A program made the position numbers and the translations under genes. Below the pieces are notes generated by a model. The model was not told the DNA's origin. It made no database searches and worked only from the letters and a program-made list of their open reading frames with translations. From Coriobacteriaceae bacterium (lineage in GTDB: Bacteria > Actinomycetota > Coriobacteriia > Coriobacteriales > UMGS124), in contig JAHZGC010000002.1 in assembly GCA_019421015.1 (NCBI GenBank), forward strand, positions 1,619-65,618: a stretch of DNA of 64,000 nt. Reading direction: 5' to 3'. Of this stretch, positions 10,536-53,565 are shown one piece after another; within the stretch, counting starts at the first letter, position 1, and every line of letters begins with the position of its first letter.

Positions 10536-10549
10536 GGTGTTCTCCCTGT

Positions 10550-19579: not shown

Positions 19580-19777
19580 GGAGACTCCTTCGGGGGAGGG
19601 CGGTGTCGTGCGGTGCTGTCTTGCGGGAGTATAGCGCGGCCTGCGGTGGCCCGTGCTCGTCGGGGTTGGGTGGCGTAGCGGGGCGCGTGCGGCATGGGAG
19701 CGCGCGTGGCATAAAACCGCGCAAATCGGGACGTTCCCGTCTGGCACGCCGTCGGCCGAAGGTGCCGGTGGCGTGCC

Positions 19778-20030: not shown

Positions 20031-20064
20031 CCTGCCGGCCGTTGCTGCCTGTTTTCGCCTGCGC

Positions 20065-23736: not shown

Positions 23737-23753
23737 GCCGTTGTGGTCTTTCG

Positions 23754-24046
23754 TGGCGCCAAAGAGGGTTCTGTAAGTCCGGGACGCCCCGGGTGGCACC
23801 GAATGCTTGTTTTGTAAGTCTCGACGACCCCGGGTGGCACCAGACGCGAGCTCTGTAAGCCCGGGTAGCGGAATATGGCACCGGATCGGTGTTTTGTAAG
23901 CCCGGGTGTGCGCATAACGCCGGTTTTTGCGTGCGAGTTCTTACAAAACTTGCATCTGGTGCCAGCTTGGGCCAGCTGGCCTTACACAACGCCGATCCGG
24001 TGCCATTGGCTGCGCCGGACTTTTACCAAACCCGTATTCGGTGCCA
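23754..24046. repeat. Phased motif array, family 1, locus C (4 direct + 3 inverted)
   Basis: Direct units start at 23754, 23794, 23835 and 23876. Inverted units start at 23940, 23981 and 24022. Central step 64 bp. Confidence 0.9.
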
Positions 24047-25569: not shown

Positions 25570-26040
25570 TTAGATCTCGATGCTCGGGATCTCCGCGTGG
25601 GCGTCTCCGCCGGCGGCGTTGATGCCCGCCATGCGCCCGAAGGTCACGCAGCGGCCGTGGCCGATGCCGGCGACGAAGGTGGGGTAGTCGCCTGCGCCGA
25701 AGAAGTCGCCGGCGGCCGAGCCGCAGACGTAGAGCCCCTCGATGGGCTGGTCGTCCTCGTCGAGCACGCGGCACTGCAGGTCGGTGCGCAGGCCGCCGCA
25801 CATGGTGAGCAGGCAGGCCTGCAGGTGGCCGGCGTAGAACGGCGGGTTCTTGACCGGGTAGAGGATCTCGGCGCGCTTGCCGAAGTCCTCGTCGTTGCCG
25901 TTGTCGCAGAGCTCGTTGTAGCGCTCGACCTCGGCCACGAACACGGCGGGGTCGCAGCCGATCTGCTCGGCCAGCTCCTCGAGCGTGTCGGCCTGGAAGG
26001 TCAGGCCGCTTTCGAGCTCGCCCTCCAGGGTCGCCTTCTG
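25570..26040 (-). pseudogene. C-terminal remnant of a flavoprotein reductase (5' part deleted)
   Basis: ...ADTLEELAEQIGCDPAVFVAEVERYNELCDNGNDEDFGK...PIEGLYVCGSAAGDFFGAG... aligns with the last ~155 aa of the intact paralogs. There is no N-terminal domain or start. Confidence 0.7.
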
Positions 26041-26074
26041 GGCGTCGATAGGCCGGGGTTGCAACCGGGGTTCC

Positions 26075-26221
26075 ATCGCCGACGAGCACGGTGTGTCGCG
26101 CGAGACCGTGAAGACCCACATCGCCGGCATCTACCGCAAGGTCCACGTCCATTCGCACCAGGAGCTGATCGCCGCCCTCGAGGCGAGGGCGGCCCAGGTC
26201 GAGAAGGACGAGACGACGTAG
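26075..26221 (+). pseudogene. C-terminal stub of a LuxR-family HTH
   Basis: IADEHGVSRETVKTHIAGIYRKVHVHSHQELIAAL is only the second half of a LuxR HTH. The upstream sequence is the opposite-strand reductase remnant. Confidence 0.65.
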
Positions 26222-29841: not shown

Positions 29842-30402
29842 ATGGAAAAGCTGATTCTGTTTCACGGTGCTCCTGACAAAGTCGTAGTGCCAACATACGG
29901 TAGGGGCGAAGAAAAGCACGACTACGGCCGTGGTTTCTACCTTACCGGAAGCCTAGACCTTGCGAAGGAATGGGCAGTTTGCAGGCCTAGTTAAGTGAAC
30001 GGCTGGGTTCATAAATATGAACTTGATACCAGTGATCTTAAAATCTTGGATTTTCAAAACGAGGGCGTTCTTCCTTGGCTTGCCGAGTTGATGAAGCATA
30101 GGGATGCGGCGGACTCCAAACGCTATCGCGTGCTCGCAAAGAAGTTTATCGATAAGTATGGCGTGGACACTGCCGGATTCGATGTCATCAAGGGCTGGCG
30201 GGCGAATGCCTCCTATTTTTATATTGCCAGGGAATTCGTGCGGGACAATATCGACATGGACATTCTCGAAGAATTACTTTCTTTGGGAGATTTAGGCATC
30301 CAGTACTGCATTAAATCAGAGCTTGCGTACTCCAAGCTCCATGAGCTCGAAAGCGATTTGCAGGCTGTGCCCTACGAAGAGTTTAACGAGAGGTATAACT
30401 AG
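29842..30402 (+). pseudogene. DUF3990-like (putative ADP-ribosyltransferase-fold) gene with in-frame TAA at codon 51
   Basis: MEKLILFHGAP...HDYGRGFYLTGSLDLAKEWAVCRPS-TAA(29992-29994)-VNGWVHKYELD... The same frame continues to 30402. GGAGGG SD before ATG 29842. Confidence 0.7.
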
Positions 30403-30494
30403 AGAGACGTTATTGCCAGGCGAAAGATGTGCGAACTTGTTGACTCCGACGCTAACCGTGTGACAAGGGTGTTCAGCACGCTATTTGAGGAGCG

Positions 30495-30920
30495 ATGACC
30501 ATGGGGGCATATGCACAAGACTATCTAAACGATGTGGTCGAAAATCAAGGTAAGCTCTTTGATATCATCGCTCAAACCCACCCCGAGGCCGACACCGAGG
30601 ATTTCATCAAGGCCTATATGGCAAGCAAGACGAGAAAAGGCATCGATGAGGGAAAAGCCTACGTTAATACCATGAGCGCCAAAGAGCTGTGGGCCTACTT
30701 TACCGAAACGGAAGGATATTCCCTGAAGCCCGGCAAGGCGCTTGATGGCTTTATGCCCGACTGGATTGGGGAGTTCTATGCCTACTATCAGTGGTATTAC
30801 GATATCCCAAGCAGCGAAGTGCTGAAAGAGGTGCCGCTTGAGTTTTTAAAGAAGGCCTACTGCGGCTTGCATGACCTAGAGCTTGACCTAGCGGTGCAAA
30901 AGGTCGGCGGAGCGAAATGA
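30495..30920 (+). CDS. Hypothetical protein; C-terminal half resembles DUF3791
   Basis: 141-aa ORF in the lower-GC island. GAGGAG SD (the start may be the second ATG at 30501). The tail ...AYCGLHDLELDLAVQKV resembles the Y-x2-LH end of DUF3791 proteins, which usually accompany DUF3990. Confidence 0.5.
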   Translation: MTMGAYAQDYLNDVVENQGKLFDIIAQTHPEADTEDFIKAYMASKTRKGIDEGKAYVNTMSAKELWAYFTETEGYSLKPGKALDGFMPDWIGEFYAYYQWYYDIPSSEVLKEVPLEFLKKAYCGLHDLELDLAVQKVGGAK

Positions 30921-31390
30921 GCATCGTCTGCTTTCATAATCCCGATGAAGACAACGGCTTCATGAGCAACTGGTATCTCTCGCGATTCGTTGTGGATGAC
31001 ATCGCGTTCTCTTCGGTGGAACAGTTCATGATGTACCGAAAGGCGGTCTGTTTCTGCGATGAACCTGCGGCGGAGCAGATACTCGCCACAGACGATGTGG
31101 CTCGGATTAAGACGCTCGGAAGGCTTGTGTCAAACTACGATGAGGGCCTTTGGAACGGTGTTCGGCAAATCGTTGTCTACGAGGGACTTCTGGCGAAGTT
31201 CTCGCAAAACGATGATTTAAGAGGGCGACTAAAGGCAACTGGCGATTCGGTGCTGGCGGAATGTGCTGTACAAGACAAGATTTGGGGTACTGGCCTGTCG
31301 ATGAAAGATCCCAATAGGTTTGATCAATCCAAATGGAAAGGCCAGAATTTGCTTGGGTATACCCTGATGATGGTGCGAGCTGCTACATAG
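30917..31390 (+). CDS. NADAR (YbiA/DUF1768) family protein
   Basis: GFMSNWYLSRFVVDDIAFSSVEQFMMYRKA...KIWGTGLS...GQNLLGYTLMMVR matches the NADAR pattern (F-S-N-[FW]-Y ... E-[HQ]-x-[FM]-x-x-x-K ... W-G). Overlaps the previous gene by 4 nt. Confidence 0.8.
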   Translation: MSIVCFHNPDEDNGFMSNWYLSRFVVDDIAFSSVEQFMMYRKAVCFCDEPAAEQILATDDVARIKTLGRLVSNYDEGLWNGVRQIVVYEGLLAKFSQNDDLRGRLKATGDSVLAECAVQDKIWGTGLSMKDPNRFDQSKWKGQNLLGYTLMMVRAAT

Positions 31391-31521
31391 AGCGTCTTGA
31401 GAACGCCTATGAGGATATTGACGGTCTGGTTGCGACCGGTAGGTATGCTTGGTGATACAAACGACGGCTCTTTGTGCCGCAATATATGCTGGCGGTCGGC
31501 TCTTCAGGGTAGTGCAATTGT

Positions 31522-31841
31522 ATGCAGATGTTCAAGGACCGTCAGGGCGACTTCTGGAAGAGCTGCACGGGCAACCTCAACTTCGGTGCCGCCGAGGGCG
31601 ACGGCATCAAGGCATGCCTGTGGGCCGGCGCATCACCAACGAGTCGATGGACGGCATCGTCACCGATGACGAGTACCGCGCGCTGACCCCCGAGGGAGAG
31701 GTCATCGAGGGCCTTTACGTGACCGGCAACGACTGCGGCTGCAACCACCTCGACAGCTATCCCAACCAGGGCGCCGGCACCTGCTGCGGCCGCAGCGCCG
31801 TAAACGGCATGCTCGTGGGCAAGGCTCTCGCCGCGAAGTAA
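31522..31841 (+). pseudogene. Flavoprotein reductase remnant (two non-contiguous pieces fused out of frame)
   Basis: ...NFGAAEGDGIKACLWAGA (a mid-protein motif) shifts frame near 31625 into ...GIVTDDEYRALTPEGEVIEGLYVTGNDCG...GRSAVNGMLVGKALAAK (the C-terminus). Confidence 0.6.
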
Positions 31842-31869
31842 GAGGCGCGGTTAAGGCCAAGACGCAAGA

Positions 31870-31916
31870 GGGCGCGGCCCCGGGGCAACTGCCTTCTGGG
31901 GTCGCGCCCGTTTTTT
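31870..31916 (+). terminator. Intrinsic terminator
   Basis: GGGCGCGGCCCCGG ... CTGGGGTCGCGCCC stem followed by GTTTTTTGG. Confidence 0.55.
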
Positions 31917-31967
31917 GGAGCGCGTGAGACTGAGGTCCTCTGCTGGCCGTTCTTCGCCGGTTCGCCC

Positions 31968-33416
31968 TTAACGCCGCACGTATCGGTAGGACTTGCCGAT
32001 TCGTACGTGCTCCAACTCCCCGGCTTCCTCTAGGCCCTTGAGGCGTTTTTGGGCGGCACGGACGCTTAGCCCAAAGCGCTGGTTCAGGAGCGCGGCCGTT
32101 ATAAAGCCGGCTTCGTTGCATGCTTCCAGGATAGTTGCGTTGTCGATGGGCTTAGTTGTCGCATGTTTTGCCGGAATAGCTTGCAGCGGGAGCTCCATGC
32201 GCACCTCAGCGGGGGCATGGGTCTCAAGAAGCAGGGGCTCCTGCCAGTCCATGGAGCGCCAGGTGGTAAAAATCTTGCAGATCCCGCTGCCGGCCCGATC
32301 GATAACCCCTACCTGCCCAAAGATTCTCATAAGGGTGGGGTTGCGCGGCTCAGAGAGGCCGCCTTCTATGGCGACTGCGCGGTCGACCAGGAACGACCCC
32401 GAATTCGTGACGGTCAGCCGGTCGGGATGCAGCACGACGCGCACGGTGCTGCTGCTTCCGTAGTAGGCGTGTACCAGCGCGTTGGCCATCGCTTCGTGTA
32501 CAGAGTCTTTGACGTCGTTTGACGATACGTGGCGCATGCCGGATGTGTCGACCTTAAAAGGCGTTGCGAGCGCGCGGTCGATGCGGTTGGCGACTGTGAA
32601 GTAGAAATCGACCAGGTTTCCGCTCCAATCGCCGCTGGTGGATACCACGCGGTCGTCCCAGCGGAGCTCCCCCGATGTTTCCTGGCGGTAGTCCAGCAGG
32701 AAGTGTGGAAAGAGCGCTGTGATGTCGTATTCGTTTCCAAAGGCTAGCAGCCCGGCTCTGGTGGGGCGCAGAAGACCGTCGGCATCCTTGGCTGCCGCGC
32801 CGATGTGGTAAAGAAAATCGGCGTCGGTGTCGGATCGCCAGGGATGCGTGGGCTTGTCGGCGGCAAACAGGGCGCGATAGGACGAGATTGTTTGGGAATT
32901 AAGGGAGTCGAGCGAAAGCTCGCGCAACGGCTGGCGATCGGCCGCGGGAATCGCGTCGTACTCCATGAGCCGGATATCGTCCTGACCGCATTGGATATCC
33001 GAGCTGCCGCGGCGTACGAACGCCACGAGAGCTTTCGCTCGACGGTTCCACACGGTAACCGGCCTGTCGGATCGTTCGGCACGTGGTACCGTAATGATAA
33101 CGACCGTGCTGTCGTTAATTTTGACCGAACGCACGCCGTCTGGCAGCATGACATCGCGGGAGACTTTGGACGGGTTGCGCACAACATCCCAGAAGGCTTT
33201 GATGAGGGTATCCGCGTCGGGCACCCCTTGAATCGTAAAGACGGACGGCCGCCCCTCCTGTGCCTCTTCACGAACGCCAAGGACGATTTCGCCGCCTTCG
33301 GTATTCGCGAACGCCGAATAGGTCTCCCAGATGTCCTCGGGGAGTCCGGCGAAGGCCTCTTTAAACTCTAGTTTTTGGTGCTCATGGAGGTTGTTGAGCT
33401 CGTTCATGAATGCCAT
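31968..33416 (-). CDS. AlbA_2 (Schlafen-like) / HATPase_c_4 putative DNA-binding protein ('RecG-like' regulator family)
   Basis: N-terminal HEHQKLEFKEAF...FANTEGGEIVLGV (AlbA_2). RNPTLMRIFGQVGVIDRAGSGICKI motif. C-terminal winged-helix-like tail. ATG 33416 after AAGAGG (the ORF track uses GTG 33422). Confidence 0.75.
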   Translation of the reverse strand: MAFMNELNNLHEHQKLEFKEAFAGLPEDIWETYSAFANTEGGEIVLGVREEAQEGRPSVFTIQGVPDADTLIKAFWDVVRNPSKVSRDVMLPDGVRSVKINDSTVVIITVPRAERSDRPVTVWNRRAKALVAFVRRGSSDIQCGQDDIRLMEYDAIPAADRQPLRELSLDSLNSQTISSYRALFAADKPTHPWRSDTDADFLYHIGAAAKDADGLLRPTRAGLLAFGNEYDITALFPHFLLDYRQETSGELRWDDRVVSTSGDWSGNLVDFYFTVANRIDRALATPFKVDTSGMRHVSSNDVKDSVHEAMANALVHAYYGSSSTVRVVLHPDRLTVTNSGSFLVDRAVAIEGGLSEPRNPTLMRIFGQVGVIDRAGSGICKIFTTWRSMDWQEPLLLETHAPAEVRMELPLQAIPAKHATTKPIDNATILEACNEAGFITAALLNQRFGLSVRAAQKRLKGLEEAGELEHVRIGKSYRYVRR

Positions 33417-33526
33417 GGGCACCTCTTCTTTGCCGGTCGGTTGTCTCCCATAATACGCCCGATTATGGCTGGCTATGGCGGTACTGCCCGGGATATCGAC
33501 GTTCTCTATGAGCGTGTTTGCGCCCT

Positions 33527-33646
33527 GTTCGCGAACGGTTCGCGCACGGCTGCCCTGTTCGCGAACGGTTCGCGCACGGACGCCCGGTTCGCGAACGGTT
33601 CGCGCACGGACGCCCGGTTCGCGAACGGTTCGCGAACGGACGCCTA
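33527..33646. repeat. 30-bp tandem repeat x4 containing palindrome GTTCGCGAAC
   Basis: Units start at 33527, 33557, 33587 and 33617. Each unit reads GTTCGCGAACGGTTCGCG[C/A]ACGG.... The last unit overlaps the PFOR stop codon. Confidence 0.9.
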
Positions 33647-37662: not shown

Positions 37663-37782
37663 TGGCAAGAAATTCGAGATATCAGGATGTTTTACATGCT
37701 TGGAGGGCCTCTGTCATCCTGATATCTTGCATTTTTTGCCAATGGGGCCGGAAAACTTCCTGATTTATCGCAATTCTTGCCA
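37663..37782. repeat. Phased motif array, family 2, locus F (1 direct + 2 inverted)
   Basis: TGGCAAGAAATTCGAGATATCAGGA at 37663. Inverted TCCTGA...TTGCCA units start at 37717 and 37758 (41 bp apart). Confidence 0.8.
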
Positions 37783-37860: not shown

Positions 37861-38072
37861 TGACACCAAACTGGCGTTCTGTAAGTGGAATCGACCTGTG
37901 TTGGCACCGAATACGAGTTTTGTAAGCAGGGTCGGGGGCTTATCGCCCAAAATCGAGGGCCCGGGCTTACAGAACGCCGGTTTGGTGCCACTTTCCGCTC
38001 GACGGGCTTACAAAACTCGCATCCGGTGCCAACGCGCGCCCCGCGCCCTTACAAAACTCGCATTTGGTGCCG
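37861..38072. repeat. Phased motif array, family 1, locus D (2 direct + 3 inverted)
   Basis: Direct units start at 37861 and 37902. Inverted units start at 37966, 38007 and 38048. 41/64-bp geometry. Confidence 0.9.
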
Positions 38073-41535: not shown

Positions 41536-42708
41536 ATGGAAAAAATCTTGATACAGGACATATTGCCGATCCTGGTGATCATGATTCTCGGCTACATCTG
41601 CGGCAAGTTCAGCTACTTCGACGACGACCAGCGCCAGGGCCTCAACAAGGTCGTGCTGAACATCGCCCTGCCCGCCGCTCTGTTCGTCTCGATCGTCAAG
41701 GCAACGCGCGAGATGCTGTTCAGCGACCTGACCCTCACGATCCTCTCGGTCGTGGGCGTGGTGGGCATGTTCATGCTCAGCTACTGGCTGTGCCGCAAGC
41801 TGTTCCACCACAGCATGCAGGAGGCCGCCGTCTGCGCCCTGATCGCCGGCTCGCCGACCATCGGGTTCCTTGGTTTTGCCGTGCTCGACCCCATCTACGG
41901 CGACTCCGTCGACACCAACCTGGTCATCGCCATCGTGGCCATCGTGGTGAACGCCATTACGATTCCCATCGGCATGTACCTCATCAACCGCGGCCAGGCC
42001 AAGGATCTTGAGAAGGCCGCCAAGGCCGTCTCGAACAACACGCTGGCCGCCGAGGCCGTCCCTGCCGCCGCCGTTGCGGCCGGCACCGTGGCGGCTGGCA
42101 CCACCGCCAGCGGGGGCGCCGCGGGGACCAAGGCCCTCATGACCGAGCACGAGGCCAAGAAGGCCGGCAACAAGGACGCCGAGCTCCTGGTGGCCGACGG
42201 CTCCAAGAACGGTCAGGCCGCCAAGACCAGCAAGAACTCGAACGCCCTGGTCAGCGCCTTGAAGCAGCCGGTCTGCTGGGCGCCTATCCTCGCCGTGGTG
42301 TTCGTGCTCGTGGGCATTCGCGTGCCCGACCCGCTCGACCCCTGCTTCGACCTGATCGCCAAGGCCAACTCGGGCCTGGCCGTGCTCGCCGCCGGCCTGG
42401 CGCTCTCGACCGTGAAGTTCAGCCTCGACAAAGAGGTGCTGTGGAACACCTTCTTCCGCCTGATCCTGACCCCCGCCGTGTTCCTGGTGGCCGGCATCTT
42501 GTGCGGTATGGCAAGCGACCCCAGCAAGCTCGGCATGCTCATCATGGCTGTGGCCCTGCCGCCGGCGTTCTCGGGCATCATCATCTCGAGCCGCTATAAC
42601 ATCTACGTGCGCGAGGGTGCGAGCTCTGTGGCCGTCTCGACCGTGGGCTTTGCCGCGACCGTGATTCTGTGGGTCTGGCTCGTGCCCGTGGTGGCGCACA
42701 TGTTCTAA
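41536..42708 (+). CDS. AEC (auxin-efflux-carrier) family transporter
   Basis: GGAAGG SD. N-terminus MEKILIQDILPILVIMILGYICGK. Two 5-TM halves separated by a long Ala/Gly/Lys-rich loop. Confidence 0.8.
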   Translation: MEKILIQDILPILVIMILGYICGKFSYFDDDQRQGLNKVVLNIALPAALFVSIVKATREMLFSDLTLTILSVVGVVGMFMLSYWLCRKLFHHSMQEAAVCALIAGSPTIGFLGFAVLDPIYGDSVDTNLVIAIVAIVVNAITIPIGMYLINRGQAKDLEKAAKAVSNNTLAAEAVPAAAVAAGTVAAGTTASGGAAGTKALMTEHEAKKAGNKDAELLVADGSKNGQAAKTSKNSNALVSALKQPVCWAPILAVVFVLVGIRVPDPLDPCFDLIAKANSGLAVLAAGLALSTVKFSLDKEVLWNTFFRLILTPAVFLVAGILCGMASDPSKLGMLIMAVALPPAFSGIIISSRYNIYVREGASSVAVSTVGFAATVILWVWLVPVVAHMF

Positions 42709-43032
42709 GGGTTGCGCGCGGGTAATAACGGCCGTGCGATAACGGCTGCGCGGACAGCTGGTGCGACGCGCTTGCCAAACGGTTCCGTCGCCTGGGGGAG
42801 AAACCCCTGGGCGGCGGGACCGCTTGCGTGGGGGAGAAGGGCTGGCGGGTGGGGGCCCGCTGTTGGGATGGGTTTGCGGCCGGATGTGGTCTTTGGGGTG
42901 GGGGGCGCCCGCAACGGGGGACGCCCAGAGCGGGGGACGCCCAACATTACCTATGGGGCGTTGACGCGGGCGCCACGGGAGGGGGTGCGATATGCATCAT
43001 ACATTGAATATTTAACTGTTTTGAACGCAATT

Positions 43033-43254
43033 ACACCCGCGAAAAGGGGGTTCGTGTACCGCGTAACATCTCCGTTTTTTACGCAAAGGGGAGCAAAGGG
43101 GTCGTTGGCGCCATCCCAATGATGGTCGAACGGGGAGCCGCAATTCCGGGTAACACTCTGACCAGGGGTTTTGCCATGGCGTGATTGCACGGCCTTCAGT
43201 CGGGCGGTCAATATCAAACACTGCACGGTACACGAACCCCCGTTGTGCGGGTGT
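43033..43254. repeat. 29-bp inverted-repeat pair enclosing 164 bp, upstream of gene 43326-44171
   Basis: ACACCCGCGAAAAGGGGGTTCGTGTACCG at 43033-43061 and CGGTACACGAACCCCCGTTGTGCGGGTGT at 43226-43254. 26/29 identical to the arm at 7515-7543. Confidence 0.8.
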
Positions 43255-43325
43255 ATTCCCTGTGGCCGTATTTCGCTTCTCGAGAAGATGGTCGTGGCCA
43301 AAGAGGAGATTCCGGAGCTGTAACC

Positions 43326-44171
43326 ATGAAGACAACAACTGCGCATCGTGTGGCCGCTTTAACCGGTTCGGCGCTCATGCTGGCCGGGATGGGCGCGGGA
43401 GGGGGTTTTGCCTCTGCGGGCGAGGCCCCGGCCACCGTTTCCCAAGAGGGCGTGTTTCAGAAGGTTGCTGCCGATAAGGGCGCTGTGGCCAAGGCCCCAG
43501 CCGTCGCCAGAACGTTTGCCTACAGCCAGGGTGCGCCTGCTTCCATCGACACGATCGCCCGGGTCATGGGCACACCTCGATACGCCCGCAGCTCCACCTA
43601 TGCGGGTGCCCCGCAGAGCCTCAACGCCCTGGACTGGACCATCGAGGTGGGTGGCGCCGTAGAAAACGAGTTTGTCGCCACGGTGGGCGATCTGGTAGAG
43701 AACGGACCCATGAACATCGTCATGGGTTGCAGCTGTGCGAGCAACCCGGCCAACGGCGTGGCCTCCGCGGACACCGACGTGAGCGGTGTCATGTTTCGCT
43801 CCATCGTCGATGCGGCCAACCCTGACGCTGGGGTAAACACTGTGGTCTTCACCTCGGCGGACGGCTACGAGGTGGCGCTTCCCCTGCGCTATTTGGACCA
43901 GCGCTACTCCCTCATCGGGTTCGACGTTAACGGCCAGCCGCTGAGCGATTCCATGGGCGGCTCCAACCAGCTTTGGCTCTCGGGCACCTCGGCCAACAAC
44001 CACGCTTTGTGCGGTTGGTCGGCCCCACAATCTCCCCCTGGGTCGCGGGGCCGAGGACGCTTGCCCGCCATGGCAAGAAACCACGGAAATCAGGATGCCG
44101 GCCGGGTCTTACGGCAGGAAATCAAACTAATCAGGATGTTCGGGGGTTTACGGTGGCAGAAAATGGCATAA
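43326..44171 (+). CDS. Secreted molybdopterin-oxidoreductase-domain-like protein (Oxidored_molyb/YedY-like); 3' end uncertain
   Basis: Signal peptide MKTTTAHRVAALTGSALMLAGMGAGGGFASA. WTIEVGG...FVATVGDL...MGCSCASN...VVFTSADGYEVALPL...FDVNGQPL...GGSNQLWL pattern. The last ~45 codons run into repeat array G. Confidence 0.55.
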   Translation: MKTTTAHRVAALTGSALMLAGMGAGGGFASAGEAPATVSQEGVFQKVAADKGAVAKAPAVARTFAYSQGAPASIDTIARVMGTPRYARSSTYAGAPQSLNALDWTIEVGGAVENEFVATVGDLVENGPMNIVMGCSCASNPANGVASADTDVSGVMFRSIVDAANPDAGVNTVVFTSADGYEVALPLRYLDQRYSLIGFDVNGQPLSDSMGGSNQLWLSGTSANNHALCGWSAPQSPPGSRGRGRLPAMARNHGNQDAGRVLRQEIKLIRMFGGLRWQKMA

Positions 44172-44293
44172 AACCTCGTAAATCAGGAAATTTACCAGGC
44201 ATTTGGACTGGTCGGCTACCATCGGGTTCCTGATTTCTCATGTCTCTTGCCGTTCGGTACCTTGGGCATCCTGATTTCCCGGACTTTTTGCCA
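44071..44293. repeat. Phased motif array, family 2, locus G (3 direct + 2 inverted)
   Basis: Direct units start at 44071, 44112 and 44164. Inverted units start at 44228 and 44269. Steps are 41, 52, 64 and 41 bp. Confidence 0.85.
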
Positions 44294-44355
44294 TATGGTC
44301 TCCGCGACTCGGGTAGTATGGAGCCATCCCCCCCGTCCGTGAACTAAGCGACCGC

Positions 44356-44608
44356 TGGCACGAAACTGGAGTTATGCAAGGGGGCAGAGCGTCCACTGGT
44401 ACCGAATGCGAGTTTTGTAAGGGTGCCCGGAGCCATCTGGCACCAAATCGGAGATATGAAAGGGCTCGCGGACAAAAACCGGTATCGTGCGTGCTCCCGG
44501 ACTTACAAAACTCGCGTCTTGTGCTATCTCCGCGCCTCTTGGCTTACAGAACCCGCATTCGGTGTCACCTCCCTCCCCGGGGGCTTACACAACTCGCGTC
44601 CGGTGCCA
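44356..44608. repeat. Phased motif array, family 1, locus E (3 degenerate direct + 3 inverted)
   Basis: Direct units start at 44356, 44397 and 44438. Inverted units start at 44502, 44543 and 44584. 41/64-bp geometry. Confidence 0.85.
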
Positions 44609-44887
44609 TCCTGCGTTCCCACCGCCCCGTGTCCCCATCCCTTCCCCTCAGCGCAAGAATTAACCCCGCCTTACTCTCCATGAATGCTACACAACTCCGA
44701 TTCCATAGCACTTTTAGACGGGCCGCCCTCAGTGTCAACGCCTGGTTACACAACCCTCAAAGGCGTCTAATAAACGCAGGTCAAGGGGGCTTTTCTGACA
44801 CCTGATAACCGTGCTTAAATACGGCTTGGGGGGTTACCGAACCACAAAGCAATACGTCAGCAAGACCTTTGGAGAGAGGGGATAGTT

Positions 44888-46399
44888 ATGTCTGACATCA
44901 CCACGACCCGTCGCGCGTTTGTGGGTGGCATGGCCGCTATGGGTGGCATGGCCGCGATGGCCGCCGCCGCTGCCAAGGCCGGTATCGCTGTGGCCGACGA
45001 GGCCGCCGCTGCCGATCCCGCTACCACCTACGAGCTCGAGGACCCGAGCGAGTACTGGGGCGAGGGCGTCGTTGCCCCCCACACCACCCGCGAGTCTGCC
45101 TACGAGAACGTCCTGCCCGAGCTGGCCGACGCCTCCATGTCCGAGCTCGTCGACATGGTCCAGGATACCCTGCCCCTCGACGAGATCGAGGACGCCGTCC
45201 TGCCCGACGGCACCACCGTGCCCGCCGTGTACGTCAAGCTGCGCAACCACATCAACCGCATCGGCTCCGGCATCGGCGGCACCCCGCTGCCCAACTCCTA
45301 CGAGATGATCATGTCTCTGTGGAGCGAGGAAGACGCCCAGCACGAGATCGAGATGCCCTACAACAAGTACTTCGACGCCAACGACTACCACTGGCTGAGC
45401 GGCCGTCCCGTCGAGGAGTGCACCGAGATCTGCGACGATCTGGCCTCCCGCGGCATGATCATGCGCGCCAATCACTCCGGCCACATCGTGTACCACCTGC
45501 TGCCCTACATCAACGGCTTCTGGGAGTTCAACGAGCTGCGCGCCTACTTCGAGAACGGCGGCGACCCCGACGGCGTGGCCGAGGCTCCCGAGGCCTACGC
45601 CGCCGCTGGCGCCTTTGACGCCCTGGGCATCGGCGGCGCCGAGCCCGGCTCGTCCTTCGAGGCCCTCGTGCCGCTGTTCCACACCTACCCCGTGAGCGCC
45701 GACGTCGTGGAGGAGGACGAGCTCGCCCCCTACATGGACTGGAAGGCCATCATCGAGGCCAACGAGAAGATCACCGTCTCCCCCTGCCAGTGCCGCCTCA
45801 TGTGGAAGTCCTTCGGCGCCCCCATGTGCCACGGCGACGGCGACCACCCCTTCGAGACCTGCCTGTCCTTCGGTGAGCTCGCCGAGTACTTCGACGAGAT
45901 CGGCATCGGCCGCTACATCAGCCAGGACGAGGCCATCGCCATGGTCGAGAAGTGCATGGACGCCGGCATGGTGCCCGAGTCCCTCAGCATGAAGGAAGTC
46001 GACATCATGTGCATGTGCCACGGCGACTGCTGCGGCAACCTGAGCGGCTACAAGGCCATGGGCGGCCAGGCCCACGCCAACGTGAACGTGAACGCCTACC
46101 TGCTCAAGTACGATCCCGAGAAGTGCATCAGCTGCGGTGCCTGCGCCGAGCGCTGCCCCATGGAGGCCATCAGCCTCAACGAGGACGGCATCTGCCTGCA
46201 CAACAACGCCTGCGTGCGTTGCGGCCAGTGCGTCACCGTGTGCCCGGCCGACGCCCGCATCCTCAGCTACCGCGGCGACTACCCCGAGCTCGGCCGCGAC
46301 TACGTCGAGGCCGTCGAGATGCTGTCCGCCGAGCGTATGCGCCGCGGCATGATCACCGACTTCGCCGGCGGCGAGGTCCAGGCCCCGGCCGAGGCGTAA
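44888..46399 (+). CDS. Tat-exported 4Fe-4S dicluster protein (paralog 3)
   Basis: Tat signal TRRAFVGGMAAMGG. SPCQCR and CMCHGDCC clusters. CISCGACAERCP and CVRCGQCVTVCP motifs. GGAGAGAGGGG SD. Confidence 0.8.
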   Translation: MSDITTTRRAFVGGMAAMGGMAAMAAAAAKAGIAVADEAAAADPATTYELEDPSEYWGEGVVAPHTTRESAYENVLPELADASMSELVDMVQDTLPLDEIEDAVLPDGTTVPAVYVKLRNHINRIGSGIGGTPLPNSYEMIMSLWSEEDAQHEIEMPYNKYFDANDYHWLSGRPVEECTEICDDLASRGMIMRANHSGHIVYHLLPYINGFWEFNELRAYFENGGDPDGVAEAPEAYAAAGAFDALGIGGAEPGSSFEALVPLFHTYPVSADVVEEDELAPYMDWKAIIEANEKITVSPCQCRLMWKSFGAPMCHGDGDHPFETCLSFGELAEYFDEIGIGRYISQDEAIAMVEKCMDAGMVPESLSMKEVDIMCMCHGDCCGNLSGYKAMGGQAHANVNVNAYLLKYDPEKCISCGACAERCPMEAISLNEDGICLHNNACVRCGQCVTVCPADARILSYRGDYPELGRDYVEAVEMLSAERMRRGMITDFAGGEVQAPAEA

Positions 46400-46467
46400 G
46401 AAAGGCAGCCCGTCGGGTGTCCTGTTGAGCGCCCGCCGTGCCTTGCAAGCTATAGCTCGGTTCTAAC

Positions 46468-46507
46468 CAGCGGAGAAGTTCTCGGAGTTCCGGGGGCTTC
46501 TCCGCTG
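46468..46507. terminator. Bidirectional hairpin between convergent genes (same stem as 41455-41496)
   Basis: CAGCGGAGAAG at 46468-46478 pairs with CTTCTCCGCTG at 46497-46507. Confidence 0.5.
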
Positions 46508-46522
46508 CGTTTGGGCGGCTGC

Positions 46523-47485
46523 CTACCCAAAGAAGCCCCCCGGCACAGCCAGGCCGTCGGGGTGCGCCCGCACGGCGTCCCAGGTGAACGTCTCGGCCAG
46601 CTCGGCGGCGGTCACGGGCCCGTCGGTCTCGCGCAGACCGCCCAGCTTGGCAAGACGGCCCAGCAGCACCTCGGGTCGCCCAAAGAAATCCCGCATAAAG
46701 CCCAGGTCGCAGTCGTGGTCGCGCTTCGAGAGCCTGCGTTCGCGGCCGGTCGAGAGCAGCAGCGGGACGTGGGCGTAGGAGGGCTGCGCAAAGCCGAGCA
46801 GCCGCTGCAGGTAGGCTTGGCGCGCCACCGACGTCAGCAGGTCGTTGCCGCGCACCACGCGGTTCACCCCCATGAGCGCGTCGTCCACGACCACGGCCAG
46901 CTGATAGGCGTGGACCCCGTCGCTGCGCCGCACGATGAAGTCGCCGCACTCGTGAGCCAGGCACTCCTGCCGGGGGCCGCACACGTCGTCGACAAAGGCC
47001 ACCGTGCCGGACGCGTCGTCCTCCGGGGGTACCGCCAGGCGAACGGCCGGGTTTCTCCGTTGCGCCTTTAAGGCCCGTTCCTCGGGGGAGAGGTCCCTGC
47101 AGGTGCCGGCGTACAGGGGCGTGCCGTCGCTGGCGTGGGGGGCCTCGGCGGCGTGCAGGTCGGCCCGCGAGCAAAAGCACGGGTAGGTGAGCCCGAGCTC
47201 CTCGAGCCGTTCCAGGTAACTCGCGTATATGGCGGAACGCTCGCTCTGGTAGACAGGCTCGCCGTCCCAGTCGAGGCCGAGCCAGCGCAGGTCGTCCATG
47301 AGCAGCTCGTCGGCTCCGCGAGGCAGCCGCGGGCGGTCAAGGTCCTCGATGCGCAAGACCAGCTCGCCGCCGCGGGAGCGCACGTCGAGCCATGCGAGCA
47401 GTGCGCACCACACGTTGCCCAGGTGCATACGGCCCGAGGGGGTGGGGGCAAAGCGCCCGCGGAGAGGTGGGTTCGCGCCGGTCAT
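46523..47485 (-). CDS. gluQ: tRNA glutamyl-Q(34) synthetase (GluQRS)
   Basis: RGRFAPTPSGRMHLGNVWCALLAWLDVRSRGGELVLRIEDLD. A truncated GluRS catalytic domain of ~320 aa with no anticodon-binding domain. Confidence 0.85.
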   Translation of the reverse strand: MTGANPPLRGRFAPTPSGRMHLGNVWCALLAWLDVRSRGGELVLRIEDLDRPRLPRGADELLMDDLRWLGLDWDGEPVYQSERSAIYASYLERLEELGLTYPCFCSRADLHAAEAPHASDGTPLYAGTCRDLSPEERALKAQRRNPAVRLAVPPEDDASGTVAFVDDVCGPRQECLAHECGDFIVRRSDGVHAYQLAVVVDDALMGVNRVVRGNDLLTSVARQAYLQRLLGFAQPSYAHVPLLLSTGRERRLSKRDHDCDLGFMRDFFGRPEVLLGRLAKLGGLRETDGPVTAAELAETFTWDAVRAHPDGLAVPGGFFG

Positions 47486-47506
47486 GGGAGGGGCCTTTCG
47501 GGCCGG

Positions 47507-47941
47507 TTATTGCTGCTGGGCACGGTAGCGGGCCATGGCGGCGTGCTCCGCGCTTACCTCGCGCACCAGGTCCCCAAAGGCCCAGCGGCGGTTGTGCTCG
47601 GTGAGCGCGGCCTTGCACCCGATGGCCACCCCGGCCGGGCGCATGGCGCGGATAACGGCCATGACCTGGTCTTCCTCCATGTTGCACAGCAGCAGGAACT
47701 CTTCGGTGGGCAGTGGGTCCGATGCAGGGGCGGGGGTGCCTGCGGGTGCGTCGGCGGGGCAGGGAGAGAAGCCCGGCAGCCCGGCGAGATGTCCCACCGA
47801 CTGATTGAGCTCTTCGGGTCCGACCGGCCTCACCGCCACGCCGGCCCCGTCGAGCAGCGCGCGCAAGGCGGCTCCCTTGGGCGAGGTGAGATCGATGTTG
47901 AACGTGAGGGCGAGCGGCGAGGGGTTCGTGTCGGGGGTCAT
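47507..47941 (-). CDS. DUF3783-like protein
   Basis: Start set at ATG 47941 after AAGGAG. ...EEFLLLCNMEEDQVMAVIRAMRPAGVAIGCKAALTEHNRRWAFGDLVREV resembles the DUF3783 C-terminal pattern (KA..T..N..W....L..E). Confidence 0.65.
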   Translation of the reverse strand: MTPDTNPSPLALTFNIDLTSPKGAALRALLDGAGVAVRPVGPEELNQSVGHLAGLPGFSPCPADAPAGTPAPASDPLPTEEFLLLCNMEEDQVMAVIRAMRPAGVAIGCKAALTEHNRRWAFGDLVREVSAEHAAMARYRAQQQ

Positions 47942-48202
47942 GGGACTCCTTTGGGGTGGCTCGGGACGGGCTGGGAACGGGCTTGAGGTGAGCGGCTCCG
48001 CCCTGGGGGGCGGACACGGCCTGCAACCGTGCAAGTATAATTGTTGCGATATAAAAAACCATGCGCACAGGTGATTCGCGCGCGCATTACGGCGGGTAAA
48101 AAACGTGCGTGACGCATAGCCTGGCCACCGACACCGCACCGCCCGGCCAGCCGACGCGCAACAGCCCGGCGGCGCGGTTTGAACAAGGATTGAGAGGTCA
48201 TC

Positions 48203-48628
48203 ATGAAGAAACAGACTCAGCGCCCCTCCGCCTCCTTTGCCGACGCCGTTGCACAATGTCACAAGGCCATTGAGCCCGGCATGGTCGCCGGGGCGTTTGG
48301 CGTGCCCGGCTGGGTCGACTGTGCGAGCGGTTGCCTCAGCCGCGTGCAGGGTTGCGCGCAGGTCACGGTGGGCGACATCATGGTGGCCGCAAGCGACCTG
48401 GCCGCCCGATTCAACGGCGAGATAGTGGACTTCTCCCTGCGCTCCGAGGGCGGCGCGCGGGTGTACGCTTTTGAGATCGCTTTCGAGCGCGACGGCGAGG
48501 CGTGCTTGGGGACCGTGGGGTTCTCACCTATCGCCGACGGGACGGTGAGCGTGTTCGCGGCTGCCTGCGGCGCCGACTCCGCCCTGGGCTTTGGGCCCGT
48601 CTACACGCATACGGAGGTCGCGGCGTAG
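48203..48628 (+). CDS. Hypothetical protein (141 aa)
   Basis: ORF with a GAGAGG SD. No recognisable domain. Confidence 0.5.
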   Translation: MKKQTQRPSASFADAVAQCHKAIEPGMVAGAFGVPGWVDCASGCLSRVQGCAQVTVGDIMVAASDLAARFNGEIVDFSLRSEGGARVYAFEIAFERDGEACLGTVGFSPIADGTVSVFAAACGADSALGFGPVYTHTEVAA

Positions 48629-48661
48629 GCGGCGGCATGGCGCGGCAAGCGTGCAGTTTGA

Positions 48662-48700
48662 GGGCCCCGGACCGCGTGCATCGGTCCGGGGCCCTTGTGT
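48662..48700 (+). terminator. Intrinsic terminator
   Basis: A perfect 12-bp stem, GGGCCCCGGACC (48662-48673) with GGTCCGGGGCCC (48683-48694), then TTGTGT. Confidence 0.6.
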
Positions 48701-48807
48701 CGGGTCTGGCTGGAATGGGCCGCTGGTTTCTCCGCCGCGTAGCCCCCATAAGCGCTACACTGTTCCCCATGCGCAATCGACGCACACCAACAAGCTAGGA
48801 GGCACCC

Positions 48808-50046
48808 ATGGCTATGAAGCCGTTCCAGTACGAGCTCATCATGCGCGAGCTCGCCACCATCAAGGAGCGCAGCCCGTTCTACGCCAAGAAGTTCGCCGAC
48901 ATCGACATGGCGACCATCAAGACTCCCGAGGATTTCACCAAACTGCCCTTCTCCGAGAAGGCCGACCTGCGCGAGGCGTACCCGCTCGGTATCCAGGCGG
49001 TGCCCGACGAGCAGGTGGTGCGCATCCACTCGTCGAGCGGCACCACGGGCACGCCGGTCATCATCCCCTACACCCAGAAGGACGTGGACGACTGGGCCGA
49101 TATGTTCGCCCGCTGCTACCGCGTGATCGGCTGCACGCCCACCGACCGCATCCAGATCACCCCGGGCTACGGCCTGTGGACCGCCGGCATCGGCTTTCAG
49201 CTGGGCGCCGAGCGCATGGGCGCCATGGCCATCCCCATGGGTCCCGGCAACACCGAGAAGCAGCTGCGCATGATGATGGACCTGCAGTCCACCGTGCTCT
49301 GCGCCACCTCGAGCTACGCGCTGCTGCTGGCCGAGCGCATCGCCCAGGAGGGCATCCGCGACCAGCTGGCCCTCAAGAAGGGCCTCATCGGCAGCGAGCG
49401 CTGGGGCAAGAAGATGCGCGAGCGCATCGCCAACGAGCTGGGCGTCAAGCTCTACGACATCTACGGCCTGACCGAGATCTACGGCCCCGGCGTGGGCGTG
49501 AGCTGCGAGTACGACTGCGGCATCCACGTGTGGGACGACTACGTGTACCTCGAGGTCGTCGACCCCAAGACCGGCGAGCTGCTGCCCGACGGCGAGGTGG
49601 GCGAGCTCGTGATCACCACGCTCGTGAAGGAGGGCGCGCCGCTCATCCGCTACCGCACCCACGACCTCACGAGCATCATCCCCGGCGAGTGCCCCTGCGG
49701 TATGGGCCACACGCGCATCAGCCAGCTGGTGGGCCGCACCGACGACATGTTCAAGGTCAAGGGCGTCAACATGTTCCCCGCCCAGGTCGAGGAGGTCTGC
49801 GCGGCCGTCGACGGCGTGAGCAGCGAGTACCAGGTCATGATCGATCACCTCAACGGCAAGGACATCATGACGGTCTACTTCGAGTGCACCACCGACGACG
49901 CCATGGAGCGCCGCGCCATCGAGGCCACTGTGCTCGAGACCTTCAAGAACCGCATCGGCGTGACCGTGGTCCCCAAGGCCGTGGGCGTGGGCGACCTACC
50001 CCGCTCCGAGAAGAAGTCCACGCGCATCCTGGACAACCGCTACTAG
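48808..50046 (+). CDS. Phenylacetate-CoA ligase family (PaaK/F390-synthetase-like adenylating enzyme)
   Basis: AGGAGG SD. ...LPFSEKADLREAYPLGIQAV...RIHSSSGTTGTPVIIPYTQKDVDDWA... Confidence 0.8.
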   Translation: MAMKPFQYELIMRELATIKERSPFYAKKFADIDMATIKTPEDFTKLPFSEKADLREAYPLGIQAVPDEQVVRIHSSSGTTGTPVIIPYTQKDVDDWADMFARCYRVIGCTPTDRIQITPGYGLWTAGIGFQLGAERMGAMAIPMGPGNTEKQLRMMMDLQSTVLCATSSYALLLAERIAQEGIRDQLALKKGLIGSERWGKKMRERIANELGVKLYDIYGLTEIYGPGVGVSCEYDCGIHVWDDYVYLEVVDPKTGELLPDGEVGELVITTLVKEGAPLIRYRTHDLTSIIPGECPCGMGHTRISQLVGRTDDMFKVKGVNMFPAQVEEVCAAVDGVSSEYQVMIDHLNGKDIMTVYFECTTDDAMERRAIEATVLETFKNRIGVTVVPKAVGVGDLPRSEKKSTRILDNRY

Positions 50047-50109
50047 CGGCGAAGGGCGACGCGGGGTGCTGCGGCGCGAAGCGCGGCGGCCGGCGTCTCA
50101 CAAGGCGTA

Positions 50110-50153
50110 AACCAACCAGGGCACCTGGGGGAGAAACCCTCAGGTGCCCTGTG
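50110..50153 (+). terminator. Terminator hairpin after the ligase gene (left copy of a duplicated hairpin)
   Basis: CAGGGCACCTG (50117-50127) pairs with CAGGTGCCCTG (50141-50151). It is preceded by AACCAAC, whose complement GTTGGTT follows only the second copy, at 50647-50653. Confidence 0.6.
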
Positions 50154-50273
50154 TGTTTGGGGCGGCTGAGCTAGGCCGGCGTTGAGCCATGCCCCCGTGG
50201 TAAGATTCCCCTGTGCCAGCGGGCTGCGCTACCCAATGCCGAAAGGCGGGCGGCGCAGAAAGGCACGGTAACG

Positions 50274-50435
50274 ATGGAGAAGCTCTACTTCTACGCAACC
50301 TTGGCCGCCGCCCTGGCGACCGTCCTAGACGTCCTCGGCAAGCCCCTCGCTCACGCTGCGGTGCGAGGTGTCAAGAGGTTGACGGGCGGTAGGAGGGGAG
50401 GCGGTGACAAAACGCCCGAAGCACGACCCCGCTAG
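50274..50435 (+). CDS. Small hydrophobic peptide (53 aa), candidate type I toxin-like ORF
   Basis: MEKLYFYATLAAALATVLDVLGKPLAHAAVRGVKRLTGGRRGGGDKTPEARPR has one predicted TM helix and a basic tail. GAAAGG lies 10 nt upstream. Too short for codon statistics. Confidence 0.3.
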   Translation: MEKLYFYATLAAALATVLDVLGKPLAHAAVRGVKRLTGGRRGGGDKTPEARPR

Positions 50436-50466
50436 GCGAGTTCCGCGGTAGGGGGTAACCCGCCCC

Positions 50467-50556
50467 CAAAAAAAGAAGAGGCCGGGTACCCCTACCCGGC
50501 CTAAGTCTCAAACCGCGCTGCCCGCCCACACGACTAGGCATGGCTCGCTGGCACAC
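50467..50556 (-). ncRNA. Candidate ~85-90-nt sRNA convergent with the small ORF
   Basis: On the minus strand, TTCTCA (50589-50584), a 17-nt spacer and TATAAT (50566-50561) form a promoter. A perfect 10-bp hairpin AGGCCGGGTA/TACCCGGCCT (50502-50479) is followed by CUUCUUUUUUU. Confidence 0.35.
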
Positions 50557-50611
50557 ATCCATTATACCCGCCGTCAACGACTTTGAGAAGAGTCGTAGCA
50601 TCCCAATCAAT

Positions 50612-50653
50612 CAGGGCACCTGGGGGAGACACCCTCGGGTGCCCTGGTTGGTT
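50612..50653. repeat. Right copy of duplicated terminator hairpin
   Basis: CAGGGCACCTGGGGGAGACACCCTCGGGTGCCCTG (50612-50646) is 33/35 identical to 50117-50151 and is followed by GTTGGTT. Confidence 0.8.
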
Positions 50654-50761
50654 GAGGATGTCTTCGCGATTGGCTGACCGAACGGCTTGCTTTTAAACGT
50701 GTTATTATACGGGTATTTATTTGTGCATATAACCGCGCATTTGTCATCCATAGGAGTACCC

Positions 50762-51127
50762 ATGGTTCCCAACGCCATCCTCGACAGGGTCAACGAGGTG
50801 CGAAACGCCGTAACCGGCTGTCGCAGAATCAGCGTGACCGACCTCACCCGCGGAAAAGATTGGCGCTCGATGCTGCCAGAGGCCGGCATCATGGAGGTTA
50901 CCGACCGGGGGGACACGGCCGGCTGGCTGGTGTCCGACTCCGACATGCGGGCTATGGTCGAGGAATATAACCGCCTTGAGGAGGAGCTCGAACGCGCGCA
51001 AATCGCCGCGATGTTCGCAGAACGGGAAGCGTCGCATCCTTTGACGGGCAACGACCTGGCCGCTGGCGTGCGTTCCGTGTTCGAGGCCCGCAAACAGGAG
51101 CTCATGGGGATTGTTGCTGATGATTAG
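50762..51127 (+). CDS. Phd/YefM-like antitoxin
   Basis: ATG 50762 after AGGAG. ...RISVTDLTRGKDWRSMLPEAGIMEVTDRGDTAGWLVSDSDMRAMVEEY fits the Phd/YefM N-terminal fold pattern. Overlaps the next gene by 8 nt. Confidence 0.55.
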   Translation: MVPNAILDRVNEVRNAVTGCRRISVTDLTRGKDWRSMLPEAGIMEVTDRGDTAGWLVSDSDMRAMVEEYNRLEEELERAQIAAMFAEREASHPLTGNDLAAGVRSVFEARKQELMGIVADD

Positions 51128-51518
51128 CGAGGCGGTGCTGCTCGAAGCCGCCGAGGCCGTCTCCGCCGTCAAAGGGCTGGCCATGGATCCGAACGACCTT
51201 GTCGAGGACGTCTTTCTTCTTGCCTACGCCTTTCCCGAAGAACGGGACTTCAAGGCCGCCGTAGCGAGCACGTGTCGTGCCCTGGGGCGTCTGGTCGCCG
51301 AAGCCGTGACACCCTCCGATTTGAAGTATGACCTGTCCGGTTGGAGCTCGTATCACTACCAGCCCTGGGTCGGGCAGGGCGTCAGGGCGATGTGCCGGAT
51401 TATGTTCAGACGCATCGAAGGCGGCATCGAGGTCAAGGGGTTCGGGCACCGGCGCATCCCCGAAGACTTTTACCGCCGCATGGGCGCGGGAAGGATGCCG
51501 GCCGATCCCAGCGCATAG
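51120..51518 (+). CDS. RelE/ParE-superfamily-like toxin (long form)
   Basis: C-terminal ...CRIMFRRIEGGIEVKGFGHRRIPEDFYRRM resembles the RelE/ParE signature (R-I-x-[YF]...I-x-V-x-x-[IF]-G-H-R...Y). ATGATTAG start/stop overlap with the antitoxin. Confidence 0.5.
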   Translation: MISEAVLLEAAEAVSAVKGLAMDPNDLVEDVFLLAYAFPEERDFKAAVASTCRALGRLVAEAVTPSDLKYDLSGWSSYHYQPWVGQGVRAMCRIMFRRIEGGIEVKGFGHRRIPEDFYRRMGAGRMPADPSA

Positions 51519-51567
51519 CCGGGTCTACGGTCGTTCTCCCCGCGCCCTAACACGTGCGGCGCCTGCC

Positions 51568-53148: not shown

Positions 53149-53341
53149 GGGGGTCCTCCTTGGTTGCTTGCTGTGCCCGGTAACCCGGGTGCCGTACAAC
53201 CTACTCTTTTGGTTCTGCGATGTCGAGGGGTACATGGTGGTTTTTGGAGGACGAGCGGCATGGGGAGTGGTTGGCTGACCGGTGGGATAGCCTGGTTGGG
53301 TGGCGGGGATGGCGCGTGGGTACGTGGGAGGGTGGGCTTGC

Positions 53342-53565
53342 TGGCAGGAATCGGGACTTTGCGACTTTCCGGGTGGTCCGACTGGCGGAAATCCGAACTT
53401 TGCGACGTGGTTTTGGTGGTAGGGAAGAAGGGTGTGGAGGTCGGTGCGTCTCTCACCTGTGGTGATACTGATGCTAATAGTGGTGCTACCGTAAAAGCGA
53501 GTCGCATAGTTCGGATCCCTGCCATTCCCAACCCTGCTCAAGTCGCAAAGTTCCGATTTCTGCCG
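53342..53565. repeat. Phased motif array, family 3, locus H (2 direct + 2 inverted)
   Basis: TGGC[A/G]GGAA(A)TC[G/C]G[G/A]ACTTTGCGAC at 53342 and 53383. Inverted GTCGCA...CTGCC[A/G] at 53501 and 53542. 41-bp phasing within each arm. Confidence 0.8.

Follow-up and report, generated by a model that had tools for sequence, protein, structure and literature searches.

The window, the whole 64-kb stretch of DNA that was analysed, has a G+C content of ~65% and carries genes for FAD/FMN reductases, LuxR-type regulators, pyruvate:ferredoxin oxidoreductase, a formyl-CoA transferase and an oxalyl-CoA-decarboxylase-like enzyme. The closest named homologues of its proteins are found in Eggerthellaceae and other Coriobacteriia, the gene content suggests an actinobacterium of the Eggerthellaceae, and the contigs that match it come from samples whose labels we take to denote human gut metagenome studies. 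Between the genes lie arrays of short oriented repeat units that begin with TGGCA and fall into three sequence families, or dialects (families 1, 2 and 3). The family-2 array at locus F is located 146-265 bp upstream of a likely oxidoreductase start codon at 37517, and a family-1 array starts 79 bp to its right. The units of locus F and the arrays of the window are the following:

37663-37687, forward strand: family-2 unit TGGCAAGAAATTCGAGATATCAGGA, the sole forward unit left of the four present in strain L001
37688-37716, no strand: centre of the family-2 array at locus F, 29 nt (39 nt in the other two family-2 arrays)
37717-37741, reverse strand: family-2 unit TGGCAAAAAATGCAAGATATCAGGA, from sequence read and pattern match
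37758-37782, reverse strand: family-2 unit TGGCAAGAATTGCGATAAATCAGGA, 41 bp from the unit at 37717
37861-38072, no strand: family-1 array F, two forward units (37861, 37902) and three reverse units (37966, 38007, 38048) around a 39-nt centre (37927-37965)
44071-44293, no strand: second family-2 array, three forward units (44071, 44112, 44164) and two reverse units (44228, 44269)
44356-44608, no strand: family-1 array G, three forward and three reverse units
14952-15245, no strand: family-1 array A, four forward and three reverse units
19707-19731, forward strand: lone family-2-like unit TGGCATAAAACCGCGCAAATCGGGA, left of array B
19778-20030, no strand: family-1 array B, three forward and three reverse units
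23753-24046, no strand: family-1 array C, four forward and three reverse units, with convergent genes on either side
53342-53565, no strand: family-3 array, two forward units at 53342 and 53383, two reverse units at 53500/1 and 53541/2, with 41-bp steps and a central step of 117 bp

The sequence-only reading had placed three family-2 units at locus F, at 37663 (forward), 37717 (reverse) and 37758 (reverse), with the two reverse units 41 bp apart. Reading the sequence finds all three at these positions and with this spacing. It had also claimed that a family-2 array followed by a family-1 array recurs elsewhere, which is borne out: the order at 37663-37782 and 37861-38072 is repeated at 44071-44293 and 44356-44608. 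The lone family-2-like unit at 19707 likewise precedes the family-1 array at 19778-20030. The family-2 pattern TGGCANNAAANNNNNNAAATCAGGA, with up to three mismatches allowed, has nine matches in the 64-kb window vs. 0.04 expected from shuffles, all of them confined to 19707, 37663-37782 and 44071-44293, and a looser family-1-type pattern that covers both families has 31 matches vs. 0.42 expected. Arrays are absent from positions 1-14900 and 44700-53300 of the window and from the 10 kb to its left; within the DNA examined they cluster in ~30 kb of the window, with one further array at 53 kb.

Genes around the arrays

All arrays are intergenic. Four are found between tandem genes, array C between convergent genes, and the family-3 array between divergent genes, in the region separating an SBP_bac_5 gene from a DUF2779 gene. 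The arrays are located at gene-module edges, with reductase and LuxR-type regulator genes between arrays A, B and C and frc-oxc-transporter genes between F and G; modules of 4-6.5 kb separate successive arrays, and most arrays have one end 33-103 bp from a stop codon. The 64-kb window contains no transposase or recombinase gene and no candidate for a unit-binding protein, paralogous or other. A 454-aa protein encoded next to array C was considered as a cognate protein and rejected, having no family or solved-structure match and no tie to the arrays.

Other features of the region deserve mention. A gene with a molybdopterin-oxidoreductase domain (43327-44171) runs into the second family-2 array, reaching the first units before any stop codon, and is probably a decaying pseudogene because it has a 95-bp deletion in strain L041 (~3043-3044). 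FAD_binding_2 gene fragments at 25570-26130 and 31449-31841 look like remnants. At 33517-33640, four copies of a ~30-bp tandem repeat (GTTCGCGAACGGTTCGCGCACGGACGCCCG) containing the palindrome TTCGCGAA abut and slightly overlap the stop codon of an oxidoreductase gene (33644-33646); this repeat is unrelated to the TGGCA arrays. The segment at 29995-33422 has a low G+C content (49-58%), encodes DUF3990, NADAR and Schlafen/AlbA_2-HATPase_c_4 proteins, and appears to be a defence-type islet gained by horizontal transfer, with array C on one side and array F on the other. Finally, a 366-aa protein encoded at 60170-61270 has a faint match to REase_MTES_1575 and a 38%-identical homologue in a related species (L036, 11327-12805). 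The gene for that homologue is inserted precisely in the gap separating frc from the oxidoreductase gene, with an identical 34-bp palindrome on each side (GGGGCTTCTCCGCTGCG/CGCCGCGGAGAAGCCCC), and the gene for such a protein may be mobile.

Phased units in three dialects

All three families are built from 25-nt units spaced 41 bp apart in two converging blocks, with the TGGCA heads facing outward. In family-1 arrays, two to four forward units are followed by three reverse units whose 3′ words face a 39-nt centre. The spacing is strict: pairs of TGGCA occur at a lag of 41 bp nine times, compared with zero or one time at each other lag from 35 to 47, and ~24 of the steps within family-1 blocks measure 41 bp, with one of 40. 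The central step of family 1 is 64 bp in 6/6 arrays (the five in the window and one in metagenome contig L004). In family 2 it is 64 bp from 44164 to 44228 and in L004, and 54 bp at locus F, the difference between the 29-nt and 39-nt centres corresponding to one helical turn. The array at 44071-44293, with its 64-bp central step, has forward steps of 41 and 52 bp. Taken together, the exceptions to the spacing (-10, +11, +53 and 3x41 bp) leave helical phase or period intact.

The family-1 consensus is TGGCACC-RRA-nnn-G-n-G-TT-n-TGTAAG and the family-2 consensus is TGGCA-AR-AAA-n6-AAATCAGGA. The terminal word is indeed swapped between these dialects, as had been proposed, with AAATCAGGA as the 3′ word of family 2 vs. 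GTTNTGTAAG in family 1. Autocorrelation at lag 41 uncovered a third dialect, TGGCAG-RAATC-SGRACTTTGCGAC, with the 3′ word ACTTTGCGAC; its presence at 53342-53565 strengthens the notion of one architecture with several recognition words. When the three profiles are compared in register, all pairs (F1-F2, F1-F3 and F2-F3) are similar (p = 0.005-0.009, column permutation), and more so than in any shifted register. This similarity is carried by TGGCA and the R-A-A at positions 8-10, and p rises to 0.12-0.25 when the head is removed. Hence, of the skeleton that the sequence-only reading took to be common to families 1 and 2, the TGGCA head and the purine/A block at positions 8-10 stand, while the GAAAT-N-CGAG part fails the permutation test. 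Kinship among the dialects is best supported by their identical 41/64 geometry, and unit length, phase, layout, central step and head support family 2 as a true sibling of family 1.

Units are ~65-78% identical from array to array, compared with ~20-44% for the 16-nt spacers; motif positions and spacing thus persist from array to array, and the spacers between units are randomised. Conservation of head and tail bases, with free cores, free spacers of fixed length and indels that keep the phase, argues that a protein recognises the double-stranded DNA from one side of the helix.

Several other identities were considered for the arrays. We reject a fixed composite of a family-2 and a family-1 array, since G has the opposite orientation to B and C, yet family-2 sequence lies on the left of both B and G; furthermore, a GNAT gene separates the two arrays in contig L004. 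The inversion of G with family-2 sequence on the same side of B and G also rules out an orientation set by chromosome polarity. Coding repeats are incompatible with a period of 41, which is not a multiple of 3, and with a stop codon in one frame of every forward unit. The sigma-54 promoter motif is TGGCAC-N5-TTGC, with a GG-to-GC spacing of 12 nt, compared with 10 nt in the units, which moreover form arrays. CRISPR arrays have near-identical repeats in one orientation and unique spacers of at least about 21 nt; here the repeats are only ~65-78% identical, orientation flips in mid-array, spacers measure 16 nt and no block exceeds four units. In a weak alignment, the unit leaves no room for the 6-8-bp central region of a Xer/dif-like site.

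Strain variation and distribution

At locus F, contig L001 (99.4% identity to the window) carries four forward units of family 2, 41 bp apart, vs. one in the window, a clean difference of 123 bp (3x41). The array in the window derives from the longer form by deletion, through recombination between units. A 941-kb contig (CBFFOQ010016950.1 of GCA_965643355.1) covers array A and the left end of the window. In contig L040, an IS3-like element is inserted inside a family-1 unit, with the breakpoint at window position ~37917. The element (1607-2381 of L040) encodes an OrfA/OrfB-type protein with HTH_23/HTH_Tnp_1 matches, and has CGGCAGGAAGTTGGAC close to its tip, followed by a perfect GC-rich palindrome; in a post-hoc comparison, CGGCAGGAAGTTGGAC was the top match of the family-2 and family-3 head profiles in that stretch of L040. 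A change in unit number and an IS insertion are the only array changes seen between strains. All strain contigs that cover loci A, B, F, G and the family-3 locus carry the array, with no empty sites, and neither the presence/absence polymorphism of a MITE nor copies at new sites were found among the strains examined. Many short-read contigs terminate at arrays, which, together with the IS insertion and the whole-period deletion, is the behaviour of repetitive DNA.

Between the divergent strain L041 and the window, differences in family 1 amount to 11/108 for conserved unit positions and 22/103 for spacers; in family 2 the corresponding counts are 3/85 and 9/98. Motif positions therefore diverge about half as much as spacers, which suggests constraint, though the counts are small. 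In family 3 there were no differences between strains in the two forward units and their spacer, and 2/50 in the reverse units, within a tract that is 6% divergent between strains; the family-3 array exists as two haplotypes among strains, whose 93-nt centres differ at nine sites.

Strains that are otherwise nearly identical have their differences clustered in tracts beginning or ending at arrays (14845-15383, 19584-20993, 52906-53545 and 42700-44700), and the non-coding segment at 42.7-44.7 kb is unusually divergent as a whole. In the genes flanking the divergent tracts, 4-fold sites show only 0-4% differences. The arrays thus coincide with borders of recombination tracts or with hypervariable non-coding segments. 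Hypermutable centres were considered as well and rejected, given that their excess of differences is no greater than that in the surrounding divergent recombination tracts.

The arrays are lineage-restricted and locally clustered. Among 185,579 species-representative genomes, the family-1 pattern had one match, by chance, and a metagenome scan gave five matches, two of which were true arrays (contigs L003 and L004) at loci unrelated to the window. Pattern scans of viral sequences and BLAST searches of plasmids and phages returned no real array, and a profile built from translations of the arrays (spurious ORFs), used to find more of them, retrieved nothing at E <= 10. The related organism represented by L036 has a formyl-CoA transferase 77% identical to that of the window and keeps the transporter-oxc-frc-oxidoreductase synteny; the 21 kb of its syntenic locus hold no arrays and no 41-bp periodicity. 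In the literature, no description of a repeat of this type was found, and searches with unit sequence strings returned primer coincidences only.

A possible transposon-end origin and competing readings

IS256 elements have terminal repeats of ~24-31 bp and generate 8-9-bp target-site duplications. In ISCth4, an IS256-family member, binding needs no more than the first 26 bp of the end, the HTH domain contacting bp 7-11 and the N-terminal domain bp 14-25, and a subterminal TGTAAA is a hallmark of the family (PMC7780238). Conservation in family-1 units is concentrated in two blocks, bp 1-10 and 14-25, and TGTAAG occupies bp 20-25 in 27-31 of 31 cases; a bipartite end of the IS256 type with TGTAA(A/G) is seen in family 1 only, TGTAA being absent from families 2 and 3. 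Two IS256-family elements have CTGTGTAAG at bp 17-25 from their tips, one in contig L057, which matches the chromosomal region of the window, and a distant relative in L067-L076. The L057 element (6515-8156, transposase gene at 6735-7982; also in L056, a second assembly) has the ends GGGTTTGCCAAGAATCCTGTGTAAGTCC/GGGTTTGTAAGATTGTCTGTGTAAGTCC and replaces ~5 kb (window ~4500-10100) that encode a LuxR-type regulator and an Fe-S/FMN-binding protein. Between its ends and family 1, nothing beyond the GG at bp 2-3, the A at bp 10, the T at bp 18 and the TGTAAG agrees, and a scan with the full family-1 profile misses IS256-type ends. Given the different heads and the failure of the profile on IS ends, this is a resemblance of design and not proof of a cognate pair.

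The likeness to IS256 elements and MITEs extends to other traits: the arrays are non-coding, intergenic and lineage-restricted, their outward ends read 5′-TG...CA-3′, and, as for MITEs generally, there are multiple homologous copies in both orientations. However, each end of an IS256 element or ordinary MITE has a single repeat, whereas the arrays have two to four copies per side in 41-bp phase; three or four phased copies of the end on each side are not known from the IS256 family. Unlike IS256 elements, the arrays have no 8-9-bp target duplication, no direct repeats of this kind flanking the five family-1 and three family-2 arrays, and no transposase gene between their blocks. The missing target duplications could reflect decay, since the spacers are saturated. 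Nested self-insertion as an origin of the 16-nt spacers is rejected, as no matching duplications flank the inner units. An autonomous copy, with forward and reverse blocks flanking a transposase gene, was not found in the DNA examined.

Ends with several sites are known elsewhere. Mu, Tn7 and Tn7-like elements and Tn552 have several oriented transposase sites of ~20-25 bp per end, in unequal numbers. In IS21, L1/L2 and R1/R2 are direct repeats, two in each 55-bp end, both of which are needed (PMC10122671). Like the arrays, these ends are blocks of oriented sites, and related elements keep architecture and tip while changing the site sequence. In contrast, they flank kilobases of transposon genes, with spacing that is irregular or contiguous (two sites in 55 bp in IS21), whereas the array blocks are 39 nt apart with units at a fixed 41 bp. 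No rve/TnsB/MuA-type gene was found in the window. REP, BIME and REPIN sequences resemble the arrays in being species-specific intergenic inverted doublets with fixed spacing and higher-order clusters, and in REPIN-RAYT systems a genome holds several sequence families, each of which goes with a paralogous protein of its own. REP units, however, are palindromic hairpins whose single strand is cut by a tyrosine (HUH) transposase, while the array units are asymmetric, the head unlike the tail, and have no internal complementarity. Moreover, REP blocks lack direct 41-bp phasing, and what the arrays conserve is motif positions rather than a master sequence.

Evidence for insertion comes from comparing whole arrays. 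The 39-nt centres of arrays B and C are 64% identical; the centre of G, once inverted, matches either of them at 67-69%. With G turned in this way, the spacers of the three arrays reach ~40% identity, vs. 20-34% in the opposite orientation. The homology of B, C and inverted G indicates that whole arrays share an ancestor and can face either way, as would be expected from insertion.

The reading that we prefer, as a tentative one with a real chance of being right, is that the arrays are non-autonomous, transposon-end-derived sets of phased binding sites, each dialect being read by its own related protein. We infer that a protein binds the units, that it is a transposase or derived from one, and that the arrays spread by transposition. 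Against this reading stand the failure to find an autonomous partner, target duplications or empty sites in the DNA examined, and the local clustering of the arrays. Each array would be a non-coding, non-autonomous element made of several 25-bp sites resembling TIRs, with bipartite units consisting of an outward head (TGGCA and R-A-A, to ~bp 10) and an inward 3′ word (bp 14-25). Both parts would be read by the same protomer of a sequence-specific protein, for which a DDE transposase or a protein derived from one is the likeliest candidate. The 41-bp spacing (~4 helical turns) would place all bound protomers on one face of the DNA, and the converging blocks (up to four and three units) around the 39-nt centre could pair into a complex of synaptic type. 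Families 1, 2 and 3 would then be sibling elements that kept head and architecture and exchanged the 3′ word, each with its own related protein. The earlier suggestion that different proteins read different dialects is a reasonable one that fits this anatomy: a constant head with a swappable tail is what related proteins with a conserved and a variable domain would be expected to read.

A use of the arrays by the host accounts for some of these observations. A host DNA-binding protein family, possibly a domesticated transposase and possibly unrelated to one, could oligomerise on the phased units to form a boundary, roadblock or insulator between accessory modules. The maintenance of motif positions and spacing beside saturated spacers agrees with such a role, as do the indels that preserve helical phase, the location at module edges, and a converging layout that presents the same unit polarity from either side, with array C between convergent genes. 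That motif positions diverge about half as fast as spacers of the same locus between strains would be predicted by host function and not by decaying selfish copies, but these constraint statistics rest on few sites. Furthermore, the related species has the same modules and synteny without arrays, and the arrays are likewise missing from the representative genomes, which would be unusual for regulation; whole arrays are homologous in both orientations, pointing to insertion; strains tolerate the loss of three of four forward units and an IS insertion; and the window offers no candidate protein. On balance we regard a host architectural role as possible and rather unlikely, and sites for host transcription factors as a less likely explanation than transposon-end origin. 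A combination of the two ideas, in which the arrays are working landmarks of the chromosome and paralogous transposase-derived proteins, one per dialect, form symmetric complexes on the phased units that insulate accessory metabolic modules (reductase and LuxR-type genes, oxalate catabolism) or organise their recombination, as a bacterial boundary-element code, seems doubtful. Modules of this sort are what makes Eggerthellaceae genomes so variable.

Two further explanations operate on the transcript or on the inter-array DNA, and both appear improbable. Transcribed hairpins could act, in the manner of REP/BIME elements, as bidirectional terminators or as stabilisers of upstream mRNAs, and most arrays do have an end 33-103 bp from a stop codon. 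Family-1 array F folds strongly (MFE -119.9 kcal/mol, z = -7.0; z = -2.6 for the family-2 array), but this folding is a trivial result of the inverted repeats. The variable cores of partner units show neither nested similarity nor compensatory change; specific head and tail bases are conserved, with a free core, and pairing is not; U-tract terminator-like sites occur at chance level, and the window has zero Rfam matches at gathering thresholds. Nor is there an RNA rationale for 41-bp phasing and phase-preserving indels, or a need of hairpins for three dialects of one geometry. Alternatively, the arrays could be site-specific recombination sites that bound mobile modules, in the manner of pdif or integron cassettes, with a recombinase exchanging or inverting the DNA between arrays. 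The 4-6.5-kb modules between successive arrays would suit this model, as would the single GNAT gene between a family-2 and a family-1 array in L004, the coincidence of tract ends and rearrangement breakpoints with arrays, and a partly conserved centre that could hold a crossover site. Yet no recombinase gene lies beside any array, the units are asymmetric 25-mers rather than paired half-sites around a short overlap, and no strain has a module inverted, excised or swapped between arrays. The breakpoint in L040 is explained by IS insertion and the 123-bp deletion by homologous recombination between repeats.

If the transposon-end reading is true, the arrays would represent a previously undescribed design of bacterial non-autonomous element, in which end sites are stacked in phase and several dialects share one tip. 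They would also provide a natural series in which transposase specificity diverges while transpososome geometry is kept. In practice, short-read assemblies break at the arrays, exactly where modules meet, and this affects metagenome-based studies of gene context. Should the host make use of the arrays, they would delimit the drug- and diet-metabolising modules of a human gut actinobacterium and could explain how such modules are insulated or shuffled.
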